A stretch of DNA of 56,728 nucleotides, counting the filler, from Catajapyx aquilonaris (lineage: Eukaryota), in NCBI GenBank assembly GCA_000934665.2. It is 3 parts of 3 records of this genome, joined end to end, with 100 filler letters (N's around TTAATTAATTAA, not from the genome) between each part and the next. Parts side by side here need not be neighbours in the genome. Positions count along the whole stretch, not along the records: positions 18,987 to 37,830 come from JYFJ02006595.1; 2 more parts are not named here. One strand, given 5' to 3'. This document shows positions 11,757 through 37,930 of the stretch, piece after piece. How positions within the stretch are numbered: position 1 is the first letter of the stretch; every line of letters begins with the position of its first letter. Below the pieces are notes generated by a model that worked only from the letters and a program-made list of their open reading frames with translations, searched no databases and had not been told where the DNA came from. The translations under genes were made by a program, and so were the position numbers.

Positions 11757-12878
11757 CTACTCCTTTGTGTGAACCCTCATATGCTTTTTCAAACTTCCTG
11801 ATTCACTAAACTTTCTCCCACAAACCTTGCAACAGAATGGCTTCTCCCCTGTGTGGGTTCTCATGTGGCTATTCAAATCTCCTGACTGAGTAAACTTTTT
11901 CATGCAAATTATGCAACTGAATGGCTTCTCCCCTGTGTGAGTTCTCATATGTTTACTCAAATTTGCTGCATGACTAAACTTTCTCTTGCAAACTGAGCAA
12001 CTGAATGGCTTCTCCCCTGTGTGGGTTCTCATGTGTATATTCAAACTTACTGACTGACTAAACTTTCTCTTGCAAACTTGGCAACTGAATGGCTTCTCCC
12101 CTGTGTGGGTTCTCATGTGTACATTCAAATTTACTGACGCACTAAACTTTCTCTTGCAAATTGAGCAACTGAATGGCTTCTCCCCTGTGTGGGTCCTCAT
12201 GTGTATATTCAAACTTACTGACTGACTAAACTTTCTCTTNGTTCTCATGTGCAAATTCAAACTTGCTGACAGACTAAACATTTTCTTGCAAATTGAGCAA
12301 CTGAATGGCTTCTCCCCTGTGTGGGTCCTCATGTGGACAGTCAAACTTCCTGACCTACTAAACTTTCTCTTGCAAACTTGGCAACTGAATGGCTTCTCCC
12401 CTGTGTGGGTCCTCATGTGCTTATTCAAATCTCCAGAGTGTGTAAACTTTCTCTTGCAAACTTGGCAACTGAATGGCTTCTCCCCAGTGTGAGTCCTCAT
12501 GTGTTCATTCAAATTTCCTGACACACTAAACTTTCTCCCACAAACCTTGCAACTGAATGGCTTCCCCCCTGTGTGGGTTCTCATGTGTATATTCAGCGTT
12601 CCTGACTCACTAAACTTTCTCTTGCAAATTGAGCAACTGAATGGCTTTTCCCCTGTGTGAACCCTCATGTGTATATTCAAACTTCCTGACTGACTAAACT
12701 TTCTCTTGCAAACCTTGCAACTGAATGGCTTCTCCCCTGTGTGGGTTCTCAAGTGAGTTCGCAAATTTCTCCTTGTACTAAACTTTTTCTTGCAAATCTG
12801 GCAAATATTCCCCTCCATTTCCGTCCGCCGCTTTTCTTCCTGGATCACCTTCTTCACATCCTCTTGAGCACATTCATC
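11757..12878 (-). CDS. Terminal exon of a tandem C2H2 zinc-finger protein (~13 fingers, TGEKPF linkers)
   Basis: Repeated CxxC-x12-HxxxH with HTGEKPFSC linkers; acceptor tttcag just upstream of 12878 on the minus strand; an N at 12240 joins fingers 7 and 8; upstream exons not identified. Confidence 0.92.
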   Translation of the reverse strand, partial: DECAQEDVKKVIQEEKRRTEMEGNICQICKKKFSTRRNLRTHLRTHTGEKPFSCKVCKRKFSQSGSLNIHMRVHTGEKPFSCSICKRKFSESGTLNIHMRTHTGGKPFSCKVCGRKFSVSGNLNEHMRTHTGEKPFSCQVCKRKFTHSGDLNKHMRTHTGEKPFSCQVCKRKFSRSGSLTVHMRTHTGEKPFSCSICKKMFSLSASLNLHMRXKRKFSQSVSLNIHMRTHTGEKPFSCSICKRKFSASVNLNVHMRTHTGEKPFSCQVCKRKFSQSVSLNIHMRTHTGEKPFSCSVCKRKFSHAANLSKHMRTHTGEKPFSCIICMKKFTQSGDLNSHMRTHTGEKPFCCKVCGRKFSESGSLKKHMRVHTKE

Positions 12879-18886: not shown

Positions 18887-18986
18887 NNNNNNNNNNNNNN
18901 NNNNNNNNNNNNNNNNNNNNNNNNNNNNNNTTAATTAATTAANNNNNNNNNNNNNNNNNNNNNNNNNNNNNNNNNNNNNNNNNNNN
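18887..18986. other. Artificial contig spacer N44-TTAATTAATTAA-N44
   Basis: 100 bp exactly, six-frame stop linker, identical to 37831-37930. Confidence 0.97.
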
Positions 18987-19397
18987 GGGCGCATGCGCAC
19001 TTACTTCAGGGGGCGTGGCACCTGATTTGCCGAACATCCAAACAGCCCAGGAAGTCAGATTTCTGAATTGCCGAATACGCCTATAATTAACAAACAAATT
19101 ATTGTTATGGATGCAGCAGTGTTGCCAATGCAAAATGCCCAAAAATTCCGCGGGAGGACCTGAAAATACCCGATTTTACCCGCATTTTCATTTTACCCGC
19201 ACCATTACCCGCAAGCGTCCGAAATACGGCACCGAAATACCCGAACGTTGGCATATCACTGGGATGCAGCACAGGCGGGTAGGGGGGTCTCTCAGTTTGG
19301 CCGTTCGTTCGGCAATAATCTTCTGAGGGGCAGGGCTAACAACTCAGATATCACGTGACGCATCTCAGAATAATCTGAATTGCCGAATACGCCTATT
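18987..19397. mobile_element. Transposon-end fragments (tctgaattgccgaatacgcctat twice) abutting IR1
   Basis: direct repeat at 19062-19084 and 19374-19396; ttcggcaat at ~19308 is inverted to attgccgaa. Confidence 0.5.
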
Positions 19398-20841
19398 GTC
19401 AGGAATGGTACTCACCTGAGCCTGCAGACCATCTGCTGTTACTGCAAGGAAGGAGGTGTCCCTACCACCACGACAATGCCGGGGTATCCAACGCCGTACA
19501 AGAGGGGCAAGGACTTGTTTCCAGACACGACCAGGAACATGAGGGGATTGTTGTGGCGATACCCTTTCTACGAGCAGGTGGACTCCCATGTTGCTCGACG
19601 TAAGCTGGAAGTGATGGGTCGACATCATTTGACAGGTCTGGAGAAAGCGGCGTTGCTCATCGACGAGGCAATTGGAGTTCATATGATGACAATAGAGCCG
19701 GCGGAGGTCGAGCAGTGGGATTACCAGATGCCCAATGGTACCTGGACAGGAAGCGTGGCCTTTGTGAGATCCGGAAAGTATGAAGGTGGTGCAGTCTTCG
19801 TGGTCAGCAGAGAGGCGTACCTGTACGCTGACATATCCAATCTAGGGTTGGAAAGCTACCTGACCTTCGTGACCGATCTGCCTGGAGGACATATCCAATG
19901 GAATCTTCTGGTTCTGCCTTTGACCCGAGGGTCATGGGTGGGTCTTCTGTTGACCACCCTGATCTGTGGGGTTGCCCTCTGTCTGCTCCTGAGACGAGAG
20001 TCAATCAAAGCATCTCTCTCATACTGTTTGGCCAACCTTGCCCGGATCATCCTGGAGCAACCCGAGTCCCTACCGGATCTTGCCAAAGTCAGGATGCTAA
20101 TCGGCTCCTTTTGGATCATGGCAGTCGTGGTCACCTGTGGCTACCGGAGCAAGTTTGTGGAGATGCTGACCATCCCTGAGATGGAGAAGCTGCCAGAGGA
20201 TCTTACCGGCTTATTCTACGCCGGATACCAGATCCTGATGCCTGTTATCAACACCATGATACTGAAGCAGGTAACTTATTGTTGGTAATGAAGACGATAA
20301 CAATGCTGTTGACCCCATGTTCATATGCAACTCTTTTTTTGTCCTTCTATAGTTGTCAGCCTCCATAACAAATCCGTATCACATCCGGATGCTGAACGAG
20401 TCAGATCTTCTCCCAAACTTCAGATCATGTATGGATGAAGTTGTGGGGACACATGGAGTCGCTTGTCTGATGTACAACCTGATGATGGACCAAGAGCTGA
20501 GCCACTACTACACTTCAACTGGCGAACCTCTTCTGCAGGTGGCTCCTGCTAAGGAGTATCCTCTACAAGGGAAACTGGCGTTTCCTAAAGGAGGGTTGTA
20601 CAACCAAGCTTTCTTTGATTTGCTCCATATGGGGTTCGAATCAGGGTCGATTGACCACTTCTTTGACGAGCAGAAGAGGGTCACTGCGTACATGAATTTT
20701 AACGAGGTGGGTGACCCTGAAATTGAGTCAGGTCATGGGCCAGAGGTGCTGCGGATGCACGATTTGAAGGTTATTTTCTCGTTCTGGGTGGCCTCCATTT
20801 CTGCTTCTCTGTGTGTGATGCTAATCGAAATGTGTTACTAA
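19398..20841 (+). CDS. Divergent ionotropic receptor IR1, 5'-incomplete; exons ~19398-20270 and 20353-20841
   Basis: PNGTWTGSVAFV (S1), LVLPLTRGSWVGLL (M1), RMLIGSFWIMAVVVTCGYRSKFVEMLTIP (M3), terminal TM helix; phase-0 GT-AG intron 20271-20352. Confidence 0.82.
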
Positions 20842-21677
20842 AGAGATTTAAATACTCGCATCTAACACCAGCCTGTAAAAAATATTAACTATGGGTATGT
20901 ATAGCCTATAGGCGCATATTAAGTGTATTAAGTTAGTTAACCCAGATATGGCTGAATTATTTTTTAACATTAAAAAAAATATTTTATGATCTAATTAACA
21001 TAATAGTGTGCATAAAGTGCCCTGTGCAAGAAGTGTCCTATATGTATAGGACATTTACATATCTGGGTTATGCAGCGTACGTATGTTCATTTTAAATAAT
21101 AACCCATAATTATTGCAATATCTGTGCAAGTGTAGAAAATAGTCTTTGGATTAGCTATGTACAGTACTAGTCGACACAACCTAGAAATGTGAAAGGTCAA
21201 GAGCAAACAATGTCACGTACCAATCAATGCGAAATTGCACGTGAATAATTAGTGCAAGTGTCTCTCGGACAGGTTGGAACATTCACAGCATTTCCTTCAA
21301 GTATGGAGCACTGTGTCAGATGATGAATATTTAACAACTGACGTATGTATCATACCATATGAAATAAATAAAAATATCCTCGAACTGTCCTACAGAAGTG
21401 ACATTATTTACAATAAGGCATAAAGGGTTTTATGTTCTAAAAATCAGGGACATTGAAAATTTTTTTGCATCTTTATTCAACTGCAATGCATAAACAGTAC
21501 TGTACATATAATTATGACAATGTACTATTCATGTGCCTGCGTGCTGCTTGAAACATGTCACTGTCATGATTCATATCGAAAATAATTACTGCCCACTGAC
21601 ACCTTCCAAGTCATTATGCCACGTCCACCTCGGTCTGATTTTGAACTGCGTAGAACAAGAGGCCAGTATTGCGAAAA

Positions 21678-23732
21678 ATGGACATCATGTACGCTGCCGC
21701 CTTTATCCAACTCCTGCTGCTACACCATGTAAGTAGTTTTCAGTTGTTCAAAACCTGTTAAATGTTGATTACATTAATTTTATGACAGGTCCATGGTGAT
21801 GTCAAGTTGAAACAGGCGACTACTGAAGACTCTGAGTTGACTAGATTGATCCGGCATATTCTGGAGACTAAATATCCCAAGTGCTCCTTGGGGTTGGGAA
21901 TGGATTATCCGGATTTGAGCCCGGGTTTGCAGGATGTGATTGTGTGGAGCAACAGACACCGACCTGTTGTGATCAGTCGGATGGACTCGTTTCAGTACGA
22001 CCCTTCAGAGTATCCGTGGATATGGAAACATGAGCATCTGCTATCCTTCAGAACACAACCGCCTGAACTCAGATCCAGGTTGTGGCCTGGAGGATCCTGC
22101 GCTTTCAACCTGATCCTGGCTCGAAACACATCAAGTGTACCAGAGCTGATCATGCACACTGCAGCACACTTCATGATCAGGAATATAAAAGATCCCGTCA
22201 TGATCCACGTCCACGGTAACTCAACTCCACATCTTCTGACTGATCCTTTGAATGGAATCACGTTCAAACTACTCACACAGTTTGATCATACATTGCTGTT
22301 ACATACTGTGTGCTACTTCTGCAACTCAGGTCATCACGATGTGAACCCACCGTTTGAACCATACACCGGACCTGACATGTTTCCATCCCCTCCTAGGAAC
22401 ATGAACGGTCGTAAGTGGCTCATAGGCAACATGGACGAAATCGCCTTGGAAGGTGCAAGATCGCGGAAGAAACAGGGTGAACAACTGACCTTTGCTGAGA
22501 CAGCAGTTCTTCTGATCGAATCCGTGAGTAACGCACACATTGAGGTGGTTGTGCCTGACATATCCTCATCAGAATTTTACCAGAACGGAAGCCTGGCTGG
22601 TATGACCAAACCAGTATTGTCCAAAGAGGTGTCGATGATGCTTATTACACTCAACACCGAGGTGTCAGCCAAAGCTCTGATGCTGACAAATCCACTGGTA
22701 TTCTGGCACGTCACGTTCGTCACAAGGTATCCAAGACTTGAGATCAAATGGTACGTGATCATCAAGCCATTCTCTCTCGGTATGTGGGCCACACTTGCAA
22801 TGTCCATCGGATTCTCAGCCATTTGTCTCCAAATATTCGAACGGTCCAGTCGCAGATTCCACATGTTCAAAATGGTGTTTCAACGTGTGGTGATGAACGC
22901 TAAGATGATGACCCGGTTGTTGCTGGAACAGACACACTTTCCAGCACACACTGGAAGCTCTGTTGGTATGCTACTGTCGTTCCTGTTGTTCTTCGCCACT
23001 ATCGTAACATGCGCGTATAGGACCAAACTAGTGGCTTTCATTACATACCCGCCGACAGAAAGGTTGCCAGAAACCGCAAAGGAACTGACTGACTCCACTA
23101 TGCGGTTGGGAATCACTTCTTTGATCGCAATCCTGGCTGGAATATTCCTTCAGGACGTACCGGCCTCCCATCCGCATCGACAGATCCTACAAAGAGCCGA
23201 AATCAGCGAGACAATACACGACTGTCTGCACAAGACACAAACAGGGTACTTCGCATGTGTCCTGCCAAACGCGGATTACCAGAGAGAACGGTACTACTTC
23301 ATGGACGAAAAAGGACACTTAGGGATTCTCAAGTCGCCTTCGAACATCCTCAACGTCTTCTTGGGATCCGGATTCGGACGAGACGACATATATTTTGACC
23401 ACTTCAACTTCATGGCCATCCACGCGTTTGAAGCGAGCATCATAAGACACCTTGAGGATCACGTCAATTACCGGATGTTTCTGAAGAATTATTTCGAGAA
23501 GAGGAAGGCCAATCCGGAGGTACCCTTCTTTGAGTACAGGAGTCTACTCGATTTTGATAGACTCGCGTCCAGCCTGGGGATGTGGCTTGTTGGGATGGTT
23601 CTGTCGTGTCTTGTGTTGTTTGCTGAAATGTGTGGTGTCAAGAGCAGACACTCAAAAGGACGAGTCATTCAGGTTGAAAGTAAGCCTGAAACACCCTCCG
23701 ACTTATCACAACCAAGTGTTTCACATGATTGA
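21678..23732 (+). CDS. Divergent ionotropic receptor IR2; join(21678-21728,21789-23732)
   Basis: Signal-peptide exon MDIMYAAAFIQLLLLHH|VHG in frame through a GT-AG intron; NGSLAGM, IIKPFSLGMWATL, TIVTCAYRTKLVAFITYP, C-terminal TM. Confidence 0.88.
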
Positions 23733-24388
23733 TCTTTTGTCTAATTAATAATTATAAACACAGTCAGAAATAACTTCTTTCCTGTACATTTCTGTCAATC
23801 TTACCTCCTGATTGTTTTGCTTAATTTTTTTTCTTACATAACAAGCACATTCTAAATACTCGTACATTCATTACAATATCTGCTGGCGCTGTTGTGTTCT
23901 ATACTGCGCATAACCGTCCATGGATAAGGTCCGGAGCAACAAGGCCACGTAGCAATCAATACCTAATTACAGCACATGAATACTGCTCACTCACTACATT
24001 TCCACTGAGTATCGAGAAGCCGGATTGTCCTGGGTTCGATCCCACATCTCGTGCGGAGTTCGGGTCGTCTCCGGCTCCGTCTCAGGTGGAAATGTCCGTC
24101 AGACTAACCATTCGGGGAAGATCACAAATTGACATGCGCTGTATGACAGCTTTTATTATTTTACAGTAGGCCTACTTACAATGTTCCTTTACATGTGTGT
24201 AATGGATATAATACATACTTATGTTATACTTACTAGTAGATTGATGTATAATAATTACATGCACATAATAAATGACAGAGGAAAGTTGTGTCGACGTTAT
24301 TGAGCACTTTCAATAGTACTTGGTATGTCAGATATGGTTCAACTTCATAATTAATTTTTTTTGACCTCTATGTATCTACGACTGGTTT

Positions 24389-27300
24389 TCACAAAATGGT
24401 GCACCACCACAGGTACTTCTTGGGAGGATCCGGTGAAGACCTGCCGCTTCCAGACGAACCCCTACACTCCTGAAATAACATGATATATTACGCATCTCAT
24501 TGTGAAAACACTCCTTGAGACTTATCACCTTTAAGAACATTGCCACCTGCGTCCTCCCTTTAAGCCTTGCAACGTCCAAAGGCGTCTTTCCTTCCCCATC
24601 CGTGGCCCTCAAGTCAGCTCCTTTGTCCACCAGTAACTTAACCAAATCCAAATGTCCAGCATACGATGCCACATGCAGTGGACTCCGATTCTTCTCTCCA
24701 TTCGCCTGGATGTCAGACCCCTTCTGAATGAGAAGTTCCACCACCGACACATGTCCTTCTTTCGATGCCCTATGGATAGGTTGATCTCCAGCTCTATCCA
24801 CAGCCTCCAAGCTGGCTTCTGCCAGGACCAGTCTGGAGCAGGTGAGGAGATGTCCGTTGGATGATGCTAGATGAAGAGGTGTGATTCCGTCCTCTCTTCT
24901 CTGGTCCACATCAGGCCACTTCTCCTGAATCAGATAGTCCACAACATGGTGTCTTCCTTGCATTGCGGCCAGATGTAGACCGCTCCATCCATCCCGATCC
25001 TTCACTCTGACCAACCGATCAACCCTGCCCTTCACATAAGTCTGGACCACTTCCAGTCTGCCATCTTCACATGCATCCAGAAAGTGCTTCTGGTCAGCCT
25101 GCGATCAGATTTGGGTTGGTGTCTTTTCTAAGCTACTTCACAATCAAGTAAACATACCTTCATCATTCCTCGGTTCAGAAGCTCCTTCACTTGACTTCTC
25201 AAGTTCAGTGATGCAAGACGACTCATAGGGTTGTGAACAATCATATTGGCTATGAGCTTTGCTTCGTCTGGATACAGTCGCTTAAAATCGGCAGGACACT
25301 GACCTTCACTTCGAAGGGACAGGAACACCTGAGTTCGTCTCTCTCTGCTGTCTGGTCCGAAAGGTCGGATCATTTCGAACAGAATCAGACCCAAGGGGAA
25401 GACGTCCGACTTGGGCCCGTACTCCTTTTCTTCCAGTTGCTCAGGTGACATGTACAGTTTCGTACCCACGTTTGTGGTTTGATCATATGAGATGTCCATG
25501 GGCATGCCTTCGCGTCTGGCTACATCCAGAGCGGTGCTCAAGCCGAAGTCACCGATCTTGATCTTGTCCTGAGGGGAGTTAACAACATGATGAATCAGTG
25601 TTGCCATTCTATAAATCATCCTAGCATCAGTACAAATTGTCATGGTTTCCTTCGCCCTGTTACCTCAGGAGACATCGCGAAGAAGATATTGTGAGGCTTC
25701 AGATCACGATGGATGATCCCTCGGGTGTGGATGTAACTGACAGCCGACACTATCTGGTGGAAGTAGGTGAGGGTTACGTGCTTGTCCAGATGTTGTCCTC
25801 TGTCCAGTATATGTCCCAAAGTCTCCTCTCGGCACAACTCCAGCTGCATGTACAACAAGTTGACAGTTGGACCCACCACAGGTAAACGAGCTGTGAAGTA
25901 CTCGGAGGAAATCGCCGTTTCTTCAGCTGTTGGTCTGCTGTCTCTGGTGAGGTATATGGCGTCCCACTCCGTCTGTCTCCAAGCAGACGGATTCTCCTCC
26001 CATGCGCTGTGAAATTATGGACAAAAAAATATTTCGAACGAAAAGTCCATCGGACATTTGGACGAATATGGTTGACCCAACAATACTTGTGGAACTGGAT
26101 GATATTGTCGTGCTGGAGCTTCGCTAGAGCCCGGATTTCCCTCAGGATGATGTCCCTGAATTTCTTGTCTTCGGGTAGAGTTACTCGTTTTAAGGCGTAA
26201 TCGGCCAGGGCCAGCTTGTGTTCCGCCTTCAACACCACTCCGTACGATCCGTACCCCACCAGTGACTCGTGGTTGAACTCTGACACGTACCGGGAGACGT
26301 ACAGGTTATCACTTCCAGCCGGTATTTGACCATCGATCCTGTTCAAATGTTATTGTTAATAAAGCTTGGCAATTTATATCGATCCAAACCACAATCTTGT
26401 ACAACAAAACTGCCCATGTAGTACCATATCCCTCACATATATGGCGCAATACTGCCACTCTCAGGGTCGTGCGACAAAGTGCCACGACCTCTCGGAGTCA
26501 TGCTAACTTTAGTACCCACTGCTAACTTTAGCAGCCACTACTACAGGCGCCACCGCTAACTTTAGTAGCCACTACTAGCCTTAGTAGTGACTGCTAACTT
26601 TAACAGCCACTCCTAGCTTCAGTAGCCATTGCTAACTTTAGTAGCCACTACTAGCCTTAGTAGCGACTGCTAACTTTAACAGCCACTCCTAACTTCAGTA
26701 GTCACTCCTAACTTCAGTAGTCACTTACTAACTTGAACAGCCACTGCTAACTTGAACAGCCACTCCTCGGACGTGGTACTACATGCGCCTGCTGAACATA
26801 TGGCTCAATGGGGACAATCAAAGACACAGACTCGCACTGACCTAACAATTCCATGCGACGTCTCCAGATGCTCCATCAGGAAGCGGTACATCTGCATGTG
26901 GTTCTTCATCAGAGCCAAGCTGGCAGGGGTCTTCCCGGCGTCGTTTTTCGCCTGTGGGTCCGCCTCGTGGTCCAGTAGGAGCCTGGCCAGCTCCAGAAAC
27001 CCGGACAGAGACGCGAAGTGAAGAGGTGTGTCCTGCGTAGTAGTTCGGACGTCCACCTCAGCCCTATGTCCCAGCAGGATCCTGCAGATGTCCACGCTTC
27101 CTGTGCTGGCCGCCTGGTGCAAAGCGGCTTTTCCGTCTGTGTCCTGCGCGTTTATTTCGCACGCGTCGTAACCCAAGAGCAACCGGCACACCTCCAGGTT
27201 TCCAGCTCTAGTCGCCACTATCAGGGGCGTCTCGTTGTGCGAGTTGCGTTTGTTCACGTCCGTCAGCACACGCTGAACATCCTCGCGCGTACCGTTGGCA

Positions 27301-29795
27301 GACACGATGTGCACGTCGTTCCTGGCTCCCGTCAAGAAGATGTTCATCTCCTCGCAGTCATGCTTCACGGACAGATCCAGCGGCGTCTTAGAAGCTGAAT
27401 TCTTCGAGTCCAGGTCCACGCCCCTCTCCAGCAGCATTCTAGCAATAGCGATGTTGCCTGACCTGCCAGTAGACCCATGGAGGAATTAGCATCCATTACT
27501 AACTTGAGTAGCCACTACTAACTTTAGTAGCAACTGCTGATAACTCTCGTAGCATTGCTAACTTTAGCAGCCACCCACTACTAATTCTAGTAACCACTAC
27601 TAACTTGAGTAACCACTAACTTTAACAGTCATTACTAACTTTAGTGGTCACTAATCATTTAATAGCCACTACTAACTCTAGTAGCCACTACTACCTTGAA
27701 CAGCCACTACTAACTCTAGTAGCCACTACTACCTTGAACAGCCACTACTAACTTTAGTAGCAACTGCTGCTAACTCTAGTAACATTGCTAATTTTACAAG
27801 CCACCCACGACTAACTTTAGTAACCACTACTAACTTTAACAGTCAGTACTAACTTTAACAGTCAGTACTAACTTTAACAGTCAGTACTAACTTTAGCAAT
27901 CACTAGTCATTTAATAACCACTACTAACTTGAACAGCCATTACTAACTTTAGTAGCATTGCTAACTTCAGCAGCCACCCACCACTAACTTGAGTAACCAC
28001 TGCTAACTTTAAGTCATTACTAACTTTGGTAATAACTAATCATCTAGTAGCCACTACTAACTTGAACAGCCATTACTAACTTTAGTAGGAACTGCTGCTA
28101 ACTCTAGTAATCACTACTAACTTTAACAGTCATTACTAAAACTTTAGCAGCCACTAATTTAATATCGACCAGTAACTTTAGTAGCTACTTCTAACCTTAT
28201 TAGCTACGATAAATTTTAACAAGGCTAAATTTGATAGTCAAAGTCCAAGTTCGCGTCTAAGGCTTAAGCTAGCATCCAAGGCTAAATTAGCAACTTAGTA
28301 CAACTAATAGTGCAGCTACCCATAAAATTAGCATAAAAGCGAAAATGCGCACCCCGCAAAGCTTAAAGTAGCTACCACTAACTTGAGCAGCTCACGTTAA
28401 AATTAGCAGCTAAGACTAATGTTAGCATCCGCTGATATTTAGCAGATACCACTAACTTGGACAATAAATAACGATTGAATGAACTGACGCTAAAATTACC
28501 AGCTGAGCCTAAAGTTAGCATGCAACGATAAATTTAGCAGCAGCCACTAACTTTAAATTATAGAAGTTAAGACTAAAGTTAGTATCAAAATATGAATTTC
28601 GCATTCAAGAATAAATTTAGCAGCTCCCACTAACTTTACCAGCTACTGCTTAAATTAGCAGCTAACACTAAAGTTAGCATCCTAAGAATGATTTAGCATT
28701 CAACAATAAATTTATTTAACTGCTGCCACTAACTTGAGGAGTTAACACTAAAAATTACTGTATATAACCTTAATTTTTTGGATCATTTTCCTGGGAGTTG
28801 TTTCGAGTCAATCACAGGGGCCTGTATTAAATAAGCGGATAGTAGAACATGGGTAGAATTTTCGTCCCACTGCTATTTACTGCTAAGTTAGCAGTAACTA
28901 GCAGCGGGACGAAAATTCCACTCCCATGACGGTAAAATTAGTAGCCAACAACACCACTCACAGTGACTATTATTTACTGTACGTAAATAGCCTACTTGTC
29001 ACTTATTTTGTGACAATAATGACGTATGTAGAAGCGTTATTAGTAGCAGTTGCTAACATTGACTTAGAGTCTGCTAACCACAGTAATTTAATATAGTGCT
29101 TCTAATAGTAGCCTACTGATGAGCATGATGATGATGGTGACAATTTTGACCATGCCTACTATAGAAGCGTACAACGTATTATTACGTTACAGCTGCTAAC
29201 TTTAGGCGCACCTCCTAACTACCCTAATTCAGTAGCCTACCAGTGCTTCTAACCGTAGCCTAATAACTGATGATGGATAGAAGCGTCATTAGTAGCAGCT
29301 GCTAACTTTAGGTGTCACTGCTAACTATGGTAATTTAGTACTACTTTTTAATTATACCTTCCCTGATGATGATGGATAGAAGGGGTCATTAGTAGCAGCT
29401 GCTAACGTTCTGCTAACTACCATAATTTAGCAGTGCTTCTAACGGTACCTGGCAGCTACATGCAGCACTGTGTTTCCAGTCCTGGTCCGCTTCATAACGT
29501 TTGCCCCTTGGTCCATCAGGAACCTGCAGATCTGGACATGGTGGTTTCCAGCTGCTTCGTGCAGCGCAGTCGTCTCTTCATCATCTGCCAAGTTGACACA
29601 CGCGCCATTTTGCACCAGAAGCTCGCAGACCTGAAGCGAACCCTCTCTGGCAGCCACTATTAGAGGGGTCAAACCTGTCCTGCTCCGACAGTTCACTTTG
29701 AACTCAGGGTTGTCCAACAGACATTGGATGGTAGTCACCGACCTTTTACGGGCCGCCACATGCAACGTGGGCAAACTAACCTCGTCTTCACTCAT
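24389..29795 (-). CDS. Ankyrin repeat / eIF2-alpha kinase domain / ankyrin repeat / CaaX protein, 874 aa; exons 29795-29449, 27462-26842, 26338-26087, 26006-25664, 25568-25158, 25098-24529, 24469-24389
   Basis: All six introns GT-AG with matching phases (2,2,2,0,0,0), total 2625 nt. Kinase motifs GYGSYGVV, YALKRV, REIRALAKLQHDNII, FHNAWEE, LYMQLELC, IHRDLKPHNIFF, KIGDFGL, VGTKLYMSPEQ, SDVFPLGLILFEM. About 10 N-terminal and 6 C-terminal TPLH-type repeats. Ends KKYLWWCTIL*. Confidence 0.85.
26500..26765. repeat. ~19-bp minisatellite (ctaactttagtagccacta-like) in intron 2 of the ANK-kinase gene
   Basis: recurring gctaactttag/actaacttcag/agccact units. Confidence 0.85.
27495..29440. repeat. Long degenerate array of the same minisatellite filling intron 1 of the ANK-kinase gene
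   Basis: regular units 27495-28200, mixed-orientation units (taaagttagca) 28240-28745, degenerate units 29040-29440. Confidence 0.85.
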
Positions 29796-29829
29796 TGCAC
29801 TCCTCTACAGCACTGAACATCGTAGCAGT

Positions 29830-30725
29830 GTACATGGTAGCAACGTACTTAGCAAATATTTGCAGGCCAAAAGGCACCTCTCATCTACTGCTAAGATGTG
29901 CGGATAATGTGAACGACACTTGTGATAATTGCTAGGAAAACAACAAATATGTGTACTGGATATCGGTCAACACTGCAACCGTGATTGATGATTGTTTCAT
30001 GTCCATTTCATGCAGTATATAGTACTTACATAACGGCCGTAGCAGACAAATTATTGTGGTTTTGCCGATATAAAAGCAGTCAAATTCGGGCAATGCACAC
30101 CCACTATCAATGATGCAGACTGTCGACTATACTGTCAGTGTCATCGCAGTCTTCAAATTGTTGTCATTGTTGCTCGGTATGGTTGGACTCTTAACGGTAA
30201 GTATTAATTTATTTAATTTTTAAATTTATCTCATCAGATCCGTTTCATGAGGACATTTGTCAACAGTGTGTTGCATTAACAACTGAGGAGCAATAAAATT
30301 ACGGTACATGGTAGCATCGTACTTAGCAAATATTTGCATGCCAAAAGGCATCTCTTATCTACTGCTAAGATGTGCGGATAATGTGAATGACACTTGTGAT
30401 AATTGCTAGGAAAACAACAAATATGTGTACTGGATATCGGTCAACACTGCAACTATGATTGATCGTTTCATGTCCATTTGATGCCGTACTTACGTAACAG
30501 AGCTGTAGCATACAAATTGTGATTTTGCTGATATAAAAGCACTCAAATTTGGGCAACGCACACACAGTATTAATGATGCAGACTGTGGACTATACCGTCA
30601 GTGTCATCGCAGTCTTCACAATGTTGTCATTGTTGCTCCGTACGCTTGGACTATTAACGGTAAGTATTTAATTTATTTAATTTATCACATCAGATCCGTT
30701 TTATCAGGTCATGACAGTGAACAGT
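29830..30725 (+). repeat. ~474-bp tandem duplication containing TATA box, signal-peptide exon and splice donor of IR3
   Basis: gtacatggtagca.cgtacttagcaaatatttgca at 29830 and 30304; TATAAAAG at ~30069 and ~30532; 87-nt exons 30110-30196 and 30573-30659, both ending acg|gtaagt. Confidence 0.9.
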
Positions 30726-32585
30726 GTACTTACCCAAATTAACTTACAGGTCTGTCGATGTAACGTGCACGTGGCTCCACCCAGTCATGAAGATACGTTG
30801 CTGGCCGATGCGGTACGACACACCTTGCAAGTACATTTCACCGGATGCTCCTTAGCAATTGGGACGGATCAGCGATTGAACCGCGAGTTGCAGGAGATGT
30901 TGATCCGGATCCAACGGCCTGTTGTGATCAGTCGGATGGACTCGTTTAAGTACGACCCATCAGACTATCCGTGGGTATGGAAACCGGAGCATCTGTTGTC
31001 CTTCAGAACACAACCGCCTGAACTCAGATCCAGGTTGTGGCCTGGAGGATCCTGCGCTTTCAACCTGATATTATCCAGAAACATATCCAGTGTACCGGAG
31101 CTGATAATGCACACTGCAGCTCACATCATGCTGAGAAACCTGGATGATCCGGTATGGATCCATGGACATGATCCGCATTTGCTGTTGAACGATCCGGTTC
31201 AAGGAATCAGGCTTAAGCTGCTCTCGATGTTCAATTCAACCGCACGTGATTTGACCATACACAACGTGTGCCACTGTTGCTTATCAGGCCAAAACATGCT
31301 CAATCCGCCACTCAATTTCGGTTCAATCTTGGATCTGAATAATTTATTTCCAGTCCCATCACGCGATATGAACGGTCGCAGATTGACTATGGGGCTCTAT
31401 GAAAATCTATATGTGGATATGGAGGAAGCTAGAGTCCGGTTGATTCTAGGCGACCAGCTTAGTGCGGAGGAGGAAGTACTTCTGTTTTACGAGAAGACAT
31501 TCAACGCAGTGATTGTACCGACAATGCCTGATTTGACATTAACCGAGATGTATCCAAACGGAAGCTTGTCAGGATTCGACAGAGCAATTACCAATAATGA
31601 GATAGACATAATTGGTGTCATGATGTACACGGATATTGCGAATCAAGCAGTGCGGTTAAGCCGACCTGTGTACTTCACATGTCCTGGGTTCGTTACCCGT
31701 GCGCATCGTCCGAATATTAAGTGGTACGTTATGTTCCAGCCGTTCACGACCATAATGTGGGTCGTAATATTCGGTACAATCCTGCTGTCGTCTGTCGTCT
31801 TGCGGATGATTCAAGGAGCGGATGTACTTTCACATATGAAGTCACTGATGCGTAAACTGGTGGAGCAACCGTTGGACATACCACGACACATGGCGTTTCA
31901 TAGCGTCTTTTACATATTCACGTTGGTTGTGATATGTGCGTACAAGACCAAACTTGTATCGCTCATCACATTTCCGCCTCCGGAGAACCTCCCCGAGTGT
32001 GTCTCCGAACTTGTCGATTCCTCGTTAACATGGGGCACTGTCGAGCCTTTCTTACATGCGGCTACTGTCCTTCTGTCCAACATGAACCAACCGGTGTACC
32101 AGCTAGCACTGGACAAAGCGTACTTGATCAGCTCAGTCCGTACTTGCATGGACCGTACGCACCATGACTTCGCTTGCCTTGTGAGTGATTACATGTACGA
32201 TCGAGATAAAGCAAGTTTCCTGGATCAGAAGGGCAATCCGACGACCCTCTTCTGGCCTGAGAGGTCAATGTGCATCTATGCTGGACACGGGTTCAGTCGC
32301 GACCAGATCCATTTCGTGCAGTTCAACCAGGATCTTCAGCGGATGATGGAGAGCTCGGTGTTCGAACATCTGATGGAAAAAGCGGATTACATGAGCTTCA
32401 TACGGCATTACTTTAAGAAGATGCGTGGTACAAGTTACCGGAAGGTCGGACGTCTGTTGAACCTCCAGAAGATGATGTACGTCTTTTACTTCTGGATATT
32501 AGGTCTGGTCGGATCATGCTTCGGATTTGGGTACGAGACGCTACCAATACATACGGAAAGATTCACGAGTCGATTACACAAGTGA
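30573..32585 (+). CDS. Divergent ionotropic receptor IR3; join(30573-30659,30750-32585), alternative first exon 30110-30196
   Basis: Hydrophobic leader exon in phase 0 with acceptor ttacag at 30749; YPNGSLSG, VMFQPFTTIMWVVI, LVVICAYKTKLVSLITFP, C-terminal TM. Confidence 0.88.
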
Positions 32586-33332
32586 TACGATTCAGTACGA
32601 AGCAAAGGTACGCCACACAAGAAATAAAGGATTCGAATAAGCTGCAGTAATACTGATGTATTTTTTTGCCGATACAGAATGGTCGTGGTAAGGCGCTAAG
32701 TCTAGTGCAAAATAAGAAACAATTACAGCTCGTCACATCACTCCCAAAAAGGGACGTACCCTCGCTACACAAAAAAAAAATTCCATGCACAACTAAATAT
32801 CAACCATATTCCCCCATACAAACTAGTCTGCTACTTGACAATGTTACAAGCAATAAGTTATATAATAATAAATTGTAATTATTTTATGCGCTTCGTTTTT
32901 TAAATAAATTGCGGACAACTGTCGAAGCATCCGGTTGTTACTCAGCAACATGATATTTATTTCTCCGTTCGATTCGAGCGTTTATTGAAGTTAATTGTGC
33001 TTTGAGCACATGAAAACGCCTCTTCCCCCAAATATAAATACTCCGCACGTAATCGATATAAAAATACAGATGCCTGGATAACTTCAGTGTCCAATTGTCT
33101 CGAGAGTATAAGCTGCAAATAAATTGTTTACTAATTAGAACTAGCATCGTTGCCGGCAAAAGCCCCTCCCAGAAAAACCATACACCAGACAACTTTTGGG
33201 AATCAAAAACCGCCACAAGTTTTCACTTTTAAAAACCATGTCGTCCTGTCCGTTCACAACTGCAGCATCGTCCCAAAACTACGGACACTTAAAAACAACA
33301 AAGGAAAAAAAAAAAAAGGTTATTGGAAACTT

Positions 33333-35026
33333 TTAATGGGTCTGGCATTGTACGCCTGCTCGGTGTCCGTGATGCGTGTCGTCATCTTCGTCGTACACGT
33401 TCTTGTGCGAGTGAGAATGTTGGTGCTCTTGCGGAGTGTAATCCAACAGCATGCATTCCTCTGCATCGTCCGGAATGATGATCTGAGGCCTGTGAGTGAG
33501 ACGCAGCAATTAACACATTACGAGACAACGTACGTAATGATCATGCAGTCCACATGCTGTGTTAATCGCTACGTCTAGAGATACGTACCTCGGCGGCAGG
33601 CATTCCTCCAGCTGAGGTACCACGTCAGCCGGCATCGTCTCCGGAAAGGTCACGAAGAACTGAATGATCAGCCGTCCCTTCTCGAACGGATTCTTGTAAT
33701 TAGGCATCCCCTCGTTTAGGACGCACTTGACATCGCCATGCTTTACGACTTCCCCTGCGTGAAATAATCTGTTAAAATCCGAGCGGTGCCTGAATGTACA
33801 TGGACGTACCTGGTAGGCATGTTACCACTAGATCGCGGTTATCCAGCGTCTTAATCGTCTTCTGGAAGCCGCAGAGAGCTTCGACCAGTTCTAGGTTCAT
33901 GCGGATCAGAAGGTCGCTATCGGATCGCCTGAAACAACAATCGCAAATGCATTCACTCTATAGGGAGAGGTTCCGACGAACACTCACTTGAACACGGCAT
34001 GCTCCTGTTCATCCAAAATGACGATGACGGCACCCGGCTCCAGGCCTGGTTCTTGATCTCCCTCTCCGCTGAACACTATTTTCTGCCCGTCCCGCATCCC
34101 TTTGTCGATATTCAGCTCCAGGATCTTCCGGCTGTGGACCACCTTAAAAAAATAAATGAGATGTGTATGAGCCGAATAAGGTCGAGTTGCAAACCACTCG
34201 CTAATTATTTACCTTTTGTCCCATGCAGGTCTTGCATCTGTCCTTGGGGTCGATACGTTCACCTTGCCCCTGGCATTCGGGGCACATCGACTGGATCTGC
34301 TGGACCATACCGGGACCCAGGGCTTGTGTACGCACGACGATACCTTGCCCGCGGCACATGTTGCATCGCATGACTGAACCTTCCTTCCCACCGAGTCCTG
34401 TAAGCAGATTGAGACGTCAAGTGTCAGCTTGAAACTTGGCAAAGCAACCATAACGTTCGTTTCGTACTGGTGCAGTCACCCTAAGGCCATACAGATAACA
34501 ACACAAAGCGGCAGCCATTTGTTGGGATGCCAAAAGCACTTGCCTTCACACTTCTCGCAGATGACCTTCTTCTGCAGGGCCAGTCTTCGAACAGCGCCGT
34601 TGTAGAGCTCGTCCAGTGTGACAGACAGTTGGTGGATCACGTCCTTCCCTTTCCTCTCACGCCGGTTGCGACTCCCGCCGAACGCGCCGCCAAAAAACAT
34701 GTCAAAGATGTCCATAGGAGATCCAGTCCCCATGTTAACCCCGCCTTCCTTCAGGGCCTGCTCGCCTCCTTGGTCGTAGATCCGCCGCTTCTCGGGGTTG
34801 GACAGAACCTCGTACGCTTGCGATATCAGCTTGAACTGCAGGGAAAAATACGATCAGAATAAGCTGGAAGAGGCCCAATCCATTTCCAACTTACCTTCTC
34901 GCCTTCATTGGGATTCTTATCCGGGTGGTACTTCAAGGCCAGCTTTCGGTATGCCTTCTTCAGCTCGTCTGTTGCGCACGAGGGTTTCACGCCCAGCATG
35001 TCGTAGTACTTTGTTTCCTTAACCAT
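33333..35026 (-). CDS. DNAJA1: Class A J-domain chaperone (DnaJA1/Droj2-like Hsp40); exons 35026-34895, 34835-34544, 34397-34213, 34142-33988, 33928-33810, 33754-33589, 33489-33333
   Basis: [22 protein letters not shown]-domain, G/F region, CxxCxGxG zinc motifs, [25 protein letters not shown]-terminal CaaX VQCQTH*; intron 2 is GC-AG. Confidence 0.95.
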
Positions 35027-35529
35027 TTTCAAAGCTTCAGATGTCCTTTACCTGAAATTTTTGCAGGAGAAATCATATCAGTACTTGCTCAACCATGCAC
35101 CAAATTGCTCCTGAATTTGTCATGCACAGTACACAGTACGATCGCTGCCGATTGCTCTCACAACACGATGAAAATTTAATTCCCCATCTCTCCAAAACAC
35201 ACATCATCTCGAACATTACCCGCAACGAGAATATATAAAAAAAACGTATGTCAACGGCAAGGCAATGTTGCTATGGAACATTGTTTAAAAATAATTCATA
35301 CAAGTTCATGGCCTTCGGCAAGTATATTTCGCACTTTCATGCACACTTCAATGAAAAAAAAATAAAATCGTAAAACAAAACAAGTAACCTTTCAAAGCAC
35401 ATCGATTGCAACAATTAACTTTGCAATTAACCTGCTTATCACCGAAGCTCCACCAGACCCCCGAAACTATGTAACTATGTTCCCTAATGAGTGGCATTGA
35501 AGCGCACAGATTAATTGTGGAGTACCAAT

Positions 35530-36200
35530 TAATATTCTAATCAATACTAATAATACTAAATACTAATAATACTAAGCACTAATCAATACTAATCACTAAT
35601 CAATACTAATCAACTAATAATACTAAGCACTAATCAATACTAATAATAATATATGGCCTAGCACAGGGTATTTTAAAAAACAATAAAAAGCGAAGTACCA
35701 TGCTAATTAATGTAAATAATACCTAGTACTAATATTGCTAAGAACTAATTTATATAGGCCTACTAATTAATGTGAATAATGTGCTAATTAACGTAAATAT
35801 GTTCTAATTTAAATACTACTCATTAAGGTAATTAATAAAGTGCCAATTTAAATACAGTGCTCATTAGGATAATTAATGAAGTACTAACATAACATATACA
35901 CTAATGAATAAGAATACTAAGTACTAATTTAAATACAGCACTAATTCGTGTGAAGAATAAGTATTAAAGTACACTACAAGTTAATGTGAATAAGTAGTAA
36001 TTTAAATACAATAGGCTTACTAATTGATGTGAATAAGAATTAAAATACAGTACTAGTTAATGTGAATAAGTACTAATTAAAATACAGTACTAATTAATGT
36101 GAATAATAAGTATTAATTAAAATACATCACTATTTCATGTAAATAAAGAAGTACTAATATACAACGGTACTGATTAGTACTAGGCCTATATTAATAAAAA
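35530..36200. repeat. AT-rich degenerate tandem repeats (taatactaa; tactaattaatgtgaataag), probably in the 5'-UTR intron of DnaJA
   Basis: direct reading; minus-strand acceptor tttcag at ~35052-35057 just upstream of the ATG. Confidence 0.7.
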
Positions 36201-36689
36201 GTATTAACATACAGTACAAAATTCCTTTATGTTCACGTAAAAAGCCTCTCTCAAGTTGGTGTTCTAAATGGCGCTGGCCACGGCCACACAAAATGTTCCA
36301 CTTCTTCCGCCAGATAACGGCCGACTATAAGGATGGAGGGCTGATTGGCCCTATCTGATGGGGAAAGCGTGTGAAAGTGTAGGCCACACTGCAGCACTTG
36401 AGCACGTACAGTGATTCATGCGGAGGCTGCACTGAAGCCCACCTGTGCCGCAATCAGAAGGGTTCGAGGTGTGATGCAACCCATATGTTCTAAATCTCCC
36501 AACCTTCCGCCTCGAGGCCGCCCCCCCTCCCTCGGTTATATACTCACCAACAAAAGAAACCCTCTCCTTGTTTGCACAGTCCTCTGTGAGACGGGGTAGT
36601 CCAGATGGGGAGGGGGACGATGATGATGGCCCAGCTGCCTCCAGAGGATTCTACAGGAGGAAAAGGGTGGTGGTGTGGAAAGGAAGGAA

Positions 36690-36704
36690 GGAAGCTTCCA
36701 GAAT
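36690..36704. promoter_or_regulatory. Heat-shock element nGAAnnTTCnnGAAn upstream of DnaJA
   Basis: gGAAgcTTCcaGAAt, a perfect three-unit HSE; minus-strand TATATAA at ~36536-36542 and CCAAT at ~36344. Confidence 0.7.
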
Positions 36705-36819
36705 GATTCTATAGTAACGCTTCTCTTCAAACTACTGGGGATCGTTCATCGTTGCCCACTATAAAATATCGATCCACATCACTACGGGGGATCGCCCGTC
36801 GCTATGGAGAACCAGCTGC

Positions 36820-37830
36820 AGGGAAAGGGGGAAAAAAAAACAAACAAAAAAACAAAAATGGAACGTACAAAACAAAATTAGGGAAAAATTTGCGACAATT
36901 TTTTGCACAGTTTATGCAGAAAAAAAAAAAATGTGGGACGTGCCGAGAAATGGCACACAAGATGGAGAACATGCCCTTCAAAAATTGGCCCCCCAGAAAT
37001 TTCATATATATTGTACGTACCGGTACGTAATTTGGACATGTTCGCAATATTGTACAGAGGGGTTTAAAAAATTCTACAAAAAAACATGTCAACAATTGGA
37101 AGATTATATTCAGCGTCAAGATTTGCATAATTGGCAATTTGGAAAAATTTGCGGCACAGATTAATGTGCGAAAATGTCTGGCAAAAAAAAAAAAAAAAAA
37201 AAATGGTAGGAGATTTCCCATAAGACATGTTCAACAACTGGGGAAAAATTTGGCTCCAATTTTTTTTTGCACAATTGGGGNGTCTGGCAAAAAAAGGGAA
37301 CTGGGAGAAAATTTGGCTCAATTTTTTTTGCACCAATTGTGCAAAAAAAATTAGCCACATTTTCTCCCAGTTCCCTTTTTTTGCCAGACATTTTCGCAAA
37401 TTTTCAACAGTTTTTGTAATTGGGGGGCACGTTTTGGGGTAGAGAATGTGCGAAAATGTCTGGAAAAAAAGGGAGAAGATTTCCTACAAGACATGTTCAA
37501 CAACTGGGGCGAAAATTTGGCTCCATTTTTTTTTTTTTGCACAATTAGGCGGAACATTTTGGGGCAGAGAATGTGCGAAAATAATGTGGCGACGGAAACA
37601 TATGCTGCATGACCAACAATAGGCGAAAATGTGGATTTAAACAAAAAATAATTGAGAAGAAAAACCATTTTGGGCAACAATAGGGAGAATTTTTTTAGCG
37701 ACATTTTTTTTTTGCATAATTGACAATTTGGAAAAAAAAAATGGGGCAGCGAATGTGCGAAAATGTCTGGCAAACATGGAAAATAACTACATGGACAACG
37801 CAATAATTGGCGAAAATATCCCAATTTGTG
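36820..37830. repeat. Low-complexity A/T-run repeat with internal palindrome 37282-37389
   Basis: recurring aatgtgcgaaaatgtctggc and aagacatgttcaacaactgggg; gtctggcaaaaaaagggaactggg...cccagttccctttttttgccagac. Confidence 0.7.
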
Positions 37831-37930
37831 NNNNNNNNNNNNNNNNNNNNNNNNNNNNNNNNNNNNNNNNNNNNTTAATTAATTAANNNNNNNNNNNNNN
37901 NNNNNNNNNNNNNNNNNNNNNNNNNNNNNN
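37831..37930. other. Artificial contig spacer N44-TTAATTAATTAA-N44
   Basis: identical to 18887-18986. Confidence 0.97.

Follow-up and report, generated by a model that had tools for sequence, protein, structure and literature searches.

The sensor domain is all that distinguishes the four known eIF2-alpha kinases, PERK, PKR, HRI and GCN2, from one another, and each such domain defines one branch of the integrated stress response. The kinase domains of PKR, PERK and GCN2 have a SRYxx(D/E)F motif ahead of the glycine-rich loop (G-loop), which forms the back-to-back dimer interface. Ankyrin repeats are joined to a kinase fold in ILK, TNNI3K, RIPK4/ANKK1 and DAPK1, whose kinase domains belong to other groups, and we know of no ankyrin-bearing kinase of these groups with arrays on both sides and a CaaX tail. 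Here, we describe a predicted gene on the minus strand of a 56,728-nucleotide stretch of DNA (the window) from Catajapyx aquilonaris (assembly GCA_000934665.2). The gene lies on record JYFJ02006595.1, which supplies positions 18,987 to 37,830 of the window. Its predicted product has the order ANK(~9.5), kinase, ANK(6), CaaX-like tail; judged by its sequence, the kinase is a member of the eIF2-alpha kinase family (PEK group), and it probably derives specifically from PERK. Below, we describe the gene model and the placement of the kinase, then weigh how such a protein might be regulated and what it might phosphorylate, and finally compare it with the described systems.

Between 24389 and 29795, the minus strand has six long open frames, which were joined by sequence reading into seven exons. 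Joining the coordinates (29795..24389) gives 2625 nucleotides (nt), that is 874 codons and a stop, with no internal stop, in agreement with an earlier note on this DNA, which had proposed a single 874-aa frame connected by six phase-consistent GT-AG introns. All six introns start with GT and end with CAG, and the phases match at every junction: the codon is split after its second base between exons 1 and 2, 2 and 3, and 3 and 4, and the other three junctions fall between codons. Conserved sequence is restored at three of the junctions, as the exon 1/exon 2 junction makes an ankyrin repeat whole across an intron of 1986 base pairs (bp), the exon 3/exon 4 junction rebuilds the conserved strand-beta4 motif of eIF2-alpha kinases and the exon 4/exon 5 junction connects the catalytic loop with the DFG segment (the latter two as seen in alignments), which is not expected by chance. 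The Pfam Pkinase profile was matched as three consecutive pieces over the open reading frames (ORFs) of exons 3, 4 and 5. Moreover, in the ORFs of exons 3 and 6 a stop closes the frame a short way 5' of the acceptor, and exon 3 has no methionine ahead of the kinase, so that the kinase and the C-terminal array are unlikely to be separate genes. We consider it very probable that the gene is real and intact, with the predicted seven-exon ankyrin-kinase-ankyrin architecture. Its parts are as follows:

Exon 1, 29449..29795, minus strand: ATG at 29795, with an in-frame stop 12 nt 5' of it; ankyrin repeats 1 to 3.5; aa 1-116; Pfam Ank_2, E 2.4e-21; donor GT at 29448-29447.
Intron 1, 27463..29448, minus strand: 1986 bp, GT..CAG, mostly a 19-bp minisatellite.
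Exon 2, 26842..27462, minus strand: ankyrin repeats 3.5 to 10; aa 116-323; Pfam Ank_2, E 9e-32.
Exon 3, 26087..26338, minus strand: linker and kinase N-lobe, with the pre-G-loop dimer motif, the G-loop, Lys373 and Glu390; aa 323-407; Pfam Pkinase profile positions 2-67.
Exon 4, 25664..26006, minus strand: beta4-beta5 insert, hinge and catalytic loop (Asp508, Asn513); aa 407-521; Pfam Pkinase 73-133.
Exon 5, 25158..25568, minus strand: DFG, activation loop and helices alphaF to alphaI; aa 522-658; Pfam Pkinase 133-254.
Exon 6, 24529..25098, minus strand: six C-terminal ankyrin repeats; aa 659-848; Pfam Ank_4, E 4.2e-43.
Exon 7, 24389..24469, minus strand: Ser/Gly/Pro-rich tail, two lysines, CaaX-like box (codons 24403-24392) and stop (24391-24389); the preceding intron 6 is 59 nt long (GT..CAG).

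A tblastn search with the joined product found no second copy and no extra ankyrin or kinase coding in the window outside the seven exons. Hidden ankyrin exons within intron 1 were considered and rejected, as tblastn gave no ankyrin-like coding there. Much of this intron is occupied by the 19-bp minisatellite (27493-28204, period 19, 37 copies; Tandem Repeats Finder), with shorter related arrays extending to 28714; a further array lies in intron 2 (26501-26767, about 14 copies), and both arrays have 67-74% matches.

The family assignment is carried by all three kinase exons. In searches of solved structures, the top matches were eIF2-alpha kinases throughout: nine of nine for exon 3 (PERK, HRI, GCN2), 13 of 13 for exon 4 (GCN2, PERK, PKR) and again 13 of 13 for exon 5 (PERK 75 bits, HRI 66, GCN2 47, PKR 34). 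The first non-family match of exon 5 was NEK2 at 33.8 bits, and CDKL2, MELK and NEK2 rank below the eIF2-alpha kinases in these searches with the kinase exons. The earlier note had placed the kinase in this family, and the best solved matches bear this out; the kinase motifs it named are present as listed. With exon 5, a word-index search returned 631 matches, of which nearly all the 120 listed bear the name EIF2AK3, at 38-45% identity, and an exhaustive search of 1.84 billion representatives returned 7633 matches, 246 of them with E <= 1e-10. Summed over the joined kinase domain, phmmer scores reach about 200-208 bits for PERK orthologues versus 151-159 bits for the best PKR, HRI and GCN2, and the domain is 43% identical to damselfly PERK over 297 columns.

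Beyond these collections, a metagenome scan gave four weak loci; by tblastn, three of these are generic kinases (23-25% identity) and the fourth (L001) covers about 100 residues of the C-lobe only, at 39-42%; none of the four has ankyrin repeats. A viral scan gave no locus, and a search of the ESM Atlas returned generic kinase-fragment clusters only. A symbiont or viral origin of the gene was considered and rejected, on account of its spliceosomal introns, a GC content like that of the flanks and the animal PERK-type kinase. Among the database proteins, several fish-type proteins (within P0121-P0126, P0135 and P0142) have double-stranded RNA (dsRNA)-binding domains, one together with Z-alpha, and two tandem kinase domains, and this doubling inflates their whole-protein scores in the exon 5 search.

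Phylogenetic analysis used 55 kinase-domain rows and 312 columns, with rows labelled by their own domains and source names. In a quick tree, the Catajapyx kinase fell at the base of the family, with its placement there unresolved, outside a PKR+HRI+GCN2 group (91). In a careful tree, it grouped with all PERK rows (98/94, ultrafast bootstrap/Shimodaira-Hasegawa approximate likelihood ratio test, SH-aLRT), where its sister (92/64) is the second, degenerate kinase domain of the mite protein P0123; this pair is in turn the sister of canonical PERK (96/86) and thus lies outside the canonical PERK clade. In a reduced quick tree, from which the mite domain was removed together with three further long rows, the Catajapyx kinase was still found with PERK (92). 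A kinase phylogeny had been suggested in the earlier note, which saw a possible functional analogue of PKR: among the eIF2-alpha kinase rows used, the kinase falls on the PERK lineage, and it is not PKR-like, as the PKR clade (12 rows, 98 SH-aLRT) excludes the Catajapyx kinase. On these grounds, the kinase is probably PERK-derived.

The mite protein itself (Halotydeus destructor, named EIF2AK3, 916 aa) has two kinase domains, the first PERK-like and the second with catalytic residues lost (HRN, DFA). Either a fused gene model or a tandem of PERK and a pseudokinase could account for it.

In the Catajapyx kinase, the catalytic residues are all kept in the family alignment (Lys373, Glu390, Asp508, Asn513, Asp528, Asp576 and Arg638), as are the threonine positions of the activation loop (Thr552/553 and Thr557; HMMER alignment). 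The dimer motif is also kept, with Arg339 and Glu343 in conserved columns, together with two features typical of the family, a beta4-beta5 insert (45 residues, aa 412-456) and a P+1 segment of MSPEQ type. Going by these residues, the kinase is likely to be catalytically active.

The identity of its substrate is harder to predict. As set out in PMC11556786, eIF2-alpha kinases have a shortened linker between helices alphaF and alphaG and a constrained threonine at the start of helix alphaG (Thr487 in PKR). In an AlphaFold model of exon 5 (mean predicted local distance difference test score 81.4, 42-row alignment), helix alphaG begins at residue 596 and is capped at its N-terminus by Ser595, the residue that MAFFT aligns to the conserved threonine. 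Genuine PERK, HRI and PKR rows likewise have a serine here. In a fold search with the model, the 13 best matches were all PERK (root-mean-square deviation 1.2-4.7 A), with GCN2 and PKR coming next. From these features we are about evenly divided, if anything leaning slightly against, on whether eIF2-alpha would be the main substrate.

On both sides of the kinase, the ankyrin repeats are spaced at about 33 residues. The repeat register gives nine full repeats and one degenerate half-repeat in the N-terminal array and six repeats in the C-terminal array, so the counts of about ten and about six in the earlier note were right. Among its 60 best solved matches, the C-terminal array best resembles ankyrin-1/2, NompC and DARPins, and RNase L is not found among these 60. 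A feature that the earlier note did not mention is the predicted C-terminus, Cys-Thr-Ile-Leu (CTIL, with Cys871), which follows two lysines and resembles a CaaX box. In such a box, the cysteine is fourth from the C-terminus and a terminal leucine directs geranylgeranylation; by this rule, a lipid (geranylgeranyl) anchor is predicted, and the CaaX-like end likely points to membrane tethering of the kinase. If intron 6 were retained, the frame would continue to a stop at 24376 and the box would be lost (ORF 24376..25104). The product has no membrane span or signal peptide, its maximum 19-residue hydropathy being 1.07, compared with 2.06-2.6 at the spans or signal peptides of two PERKs and 1.65 in a third, the damselfly isoform P0147. 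The PERK luminal domain is likewise missing from the Pfam scan (no PQQ_2 match), its place at the N-terminus being taken by ankyrin repeats, and in the same scan the product has no match to the sensor domain of any of the four canonical kinases, as the earlier note implied.

This layout has no counterpart in the material examined. An ankyrin Pfam family was found in none of the 120 exon 5 word-index matches listed and in none of the 84 representatives scanned (37 and 47, from the best 150), and no match to the ankyrin regions was found in any of the 269 relatives when the whole product was compared by BLAST. A full-text literature search (supplements not covered) found no ankyrin-bearing eIF2-alpha kinase, and none appears in the available parts of the family evolution studies PMC11305385 and PMC5851622 and the kinome paper PMC3019232. 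The question in the earlier note of whether the ankyrin-kinase-ankyrin architecture had already been described can thus be answered for the database relatives examined and the papers found, none of which has it. Among those database relatives, the ankyrin-flanked, CaaX-tailed arrangement appears to be a new regulatory layout for the eIF2-alpha kinase family.

The reading we favour, with modest confidence, is that of a cytosolic PERK-derived kinase, in which ankyrin arrays and a prenylation signal have taken the place of the luminal sensor, signal peptide and membrane span. In this model, a PERK duplicate would have lost the luminal sensor and the span and gained the arrays and the prenyl tail. 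A geranylgeranyl anchor would then keep the protein on a membrane, at its cytosolic face, where the ankyrin arrays could engage a partner protein or curb the kinase. If such a partner clusters the protein, the kinase would dimerise and autophosphorylate, in parallel with the oligomerisation of the luminal domain in PERK and the role of dsRNA for PKR, and the active kinase would phosphorylate eIF2-alpha on Ser51, so that translation is damped.

Several observations weigh against parts of this model, and some of them would be better explained by a PERK-descended kinase that has been neofunctionalised and no longer targets eIF2-alpha, with arrays that recruit other substrates or turn it into a signalling scaffold at a membrane, in the way of the ankyrin-bearing kinases of other groups. 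The Catajapyx kinase sits on a long branch (1.0-1.3 changes per site), and a degenerate mite domain, joined at 92/64, is its sole sister, so that long-branch attraction may affect the placement; a neighbour with HRN and DFA in place of the catalytic motifs is itself in keeping with a change of function. The outgroup consisted of five bacterial kinases only, and the tree alone does not probe the boundary of the eIF2-alpha kinase family. At the site where eIF2-alpha docks, the stretch that links helices alphaF and alphaG carries two residues more than in 47 of the other 49 rows of the family (the remaining two have one extra residue), an insertion unique among the 50 rows, and the conserved alphaG threonine aligns ambiguously, with HMMER putting Pro593 where MAFFT puts Ser595. 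The PERK-like fold of the exon 5 model is partly circular, as the alignment behind the model consists of eIF2-alpha kinase fragments. No orthologue was found, the nearest proteins being the 38-45% identical ones, which match in the C-lobe; in the word-index searches, none of the 125 candidates for exon 3 was significant and exon 4 gave one weak bacterial-type match only. As to the tail, the CaaX box needs the splicing of the predicted 59-nt intron and its a1 residue is threonine, which is not aliphatic. Several findings speak against a change of substrate: outside the linker, the family-specific features are all retained (dimer motif, beta4-beta5 insert, threonines of the activation loop and P+1 segment of MSPEQ type), the exon 5 model has a serine N-cap at a position held by Thr or Ser in relatives, and helix alphaG of PKR tolerates considerable variation, as described in PMC11556786. 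Weighing these points, we regard a neofunctionalised kinase as possible and rather doubtful.

Two further explanations are much less probable. All junctions of the seven exons are predicted from genomic sequence alone, and one could imagine a model artefact, with ankyrin and kinase exons drawn from separate genes, or a recent, unexpressed pseudogene; there is no orthologue to show that the exon structure is conserved, and intron 1 is long and filled with repeats. This is difficult to reconcile with 2625 nt that are open over seven exons, donors and acceptors that are all canonical, split codons that complete cleanly at the ankyrin/ankyrin and ankyrin/kinase junctions, the missing start codon for a stand-alone kinase and the intact catalytic residues, and we consider it improbable. 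The other explanation, which we hold to be very unlikely, extends the parallel with RNase L drawn in the earlier note and would have the array bind a nucleotide second messenger that triggers dimerisation, the protein acting as an antiviral stand-in for PKR or RNase L. What speaks for it is the analogy of ankyrin repeats beside a kinase fold and the finding, in PMC11305385, that PKR arose in jawed vertebrates and is lacking outside them. The parallel has to be reduced to this analogy, since the product has no KEN/RNase domain and the 60 best solved structures matched by the C-terminal array, which are generic ankyrins and DARPins, do not include RNase L.

To return to the PERK-derived, membrane-tethered kinase, its boldest extension would be a fifth type of eIF2-alpha kinase: prenyl-anchored, with twin ankyrin arrays as its sensor, and belonging to a lineage-specific, diversifying family of arthropods that couples the recognition of pathogen or stress proteins at membranes to the shut-off of translation and so fills the role of PKR. 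To our knowledge, arthropods are without PKR. We put this forward as a speculative proposal that is unlikely to hold in full. If true, a lipid-tethered ankyrin sensor would be an unknown input to translational control and would offer a route to antiviral or stress-triggered arrest of translation in arthropods, and the gene would be a compact case of a kinase that keeps its output while exchanging its sensor. If the substrate has changed instead, the gene would show the rewiring of an eIF2-alpha kinase, which bears on 'EIF2AK-like' annotations in invertebrate genomes.

The kinase gene is flanked by two long intronless ORFs on the opposite strand:

21786-23732, plus strand: 648 aa.
30681-32585, plus strand: 634 aa.

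These two ORFs are paralogues (39% identity over 615 aa), one has a weak, sub-threshold Lig_chan match (E 5.6e-05), and they look like divergent ionotropic-receptor-type chemoreceptor genes. Between the start codon of the kinase gene and the next ORF lies a tandem duplication (29830-30683, period about 465-474 bp, copies 80-96% identical), which is also visible as paired short ORFs. Single Ns at 12240, 14424 and 37281 are assembly gaps or masked sites, and the paired runs of 44 N at 18887-18986 and 37831-37930 are filler between joined records; all lie outside the kinase gene.

How the predicted protein compares with known systems can be set out from the most distant to the closest. None of the three kinase exons has ILK, TNNI3K, RIPK4/ANKK1 or DAPK1 among its 60 best solved matches. 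RNase L also has ankyrin repeats ahead of a kinase fold, and its ligand binding and dimerisation through ankyrin repeats are a possible model for the arrays described here; in RNase L, however, the fold is a pseudokinase followed by the KEN ribonuclease, whereas the Catajapyx kinase looks active and has no KEN/RNase match in Pfam. With PKR/EIF2AK2, which evolves fast, and fish PKZ, the protein shares the kinase family and, if cytosolic as predicted, an N-terminal repeat module that could drive dimerisation, and it differs from both in having no dsRNA-binding domain (no dsrm match in Pfam) and no Z-DNA-binding domain. The second kinase domain of the mite protein P0123 is its sister in the tree, and both form long branches beside canonical PERK; in contrast to the Catajapyx kinase, the mite protein has no ankyrin repeats in Pfam, and its degenerate domain sits behind a PERK-like first kinase domain. 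PERK/EIF2AK3 is the closest of all. It differs in its signal peptide, luminal PQQ-like domain and membrane span, none of which the Catajapyx protein has, in the lack of ankyrin arrays on either side of the kinase, in a beta4-beta5 insert of well over 100 aa compared with 45 aa, and in an alphaF-alphaG linker that is two residues shorter; attachment to the membrane would, in the Catajapyx protein, be by a prenyl tail. At the same time, sequence, tree (98/94) and predicted fold all make the PERK kinase domain the closest one; the two proteins have in common the dimer motif, the presence of the insert and the activation-loop threonines, and for both a membrane location with a kinase facing the cytosol would be expected.

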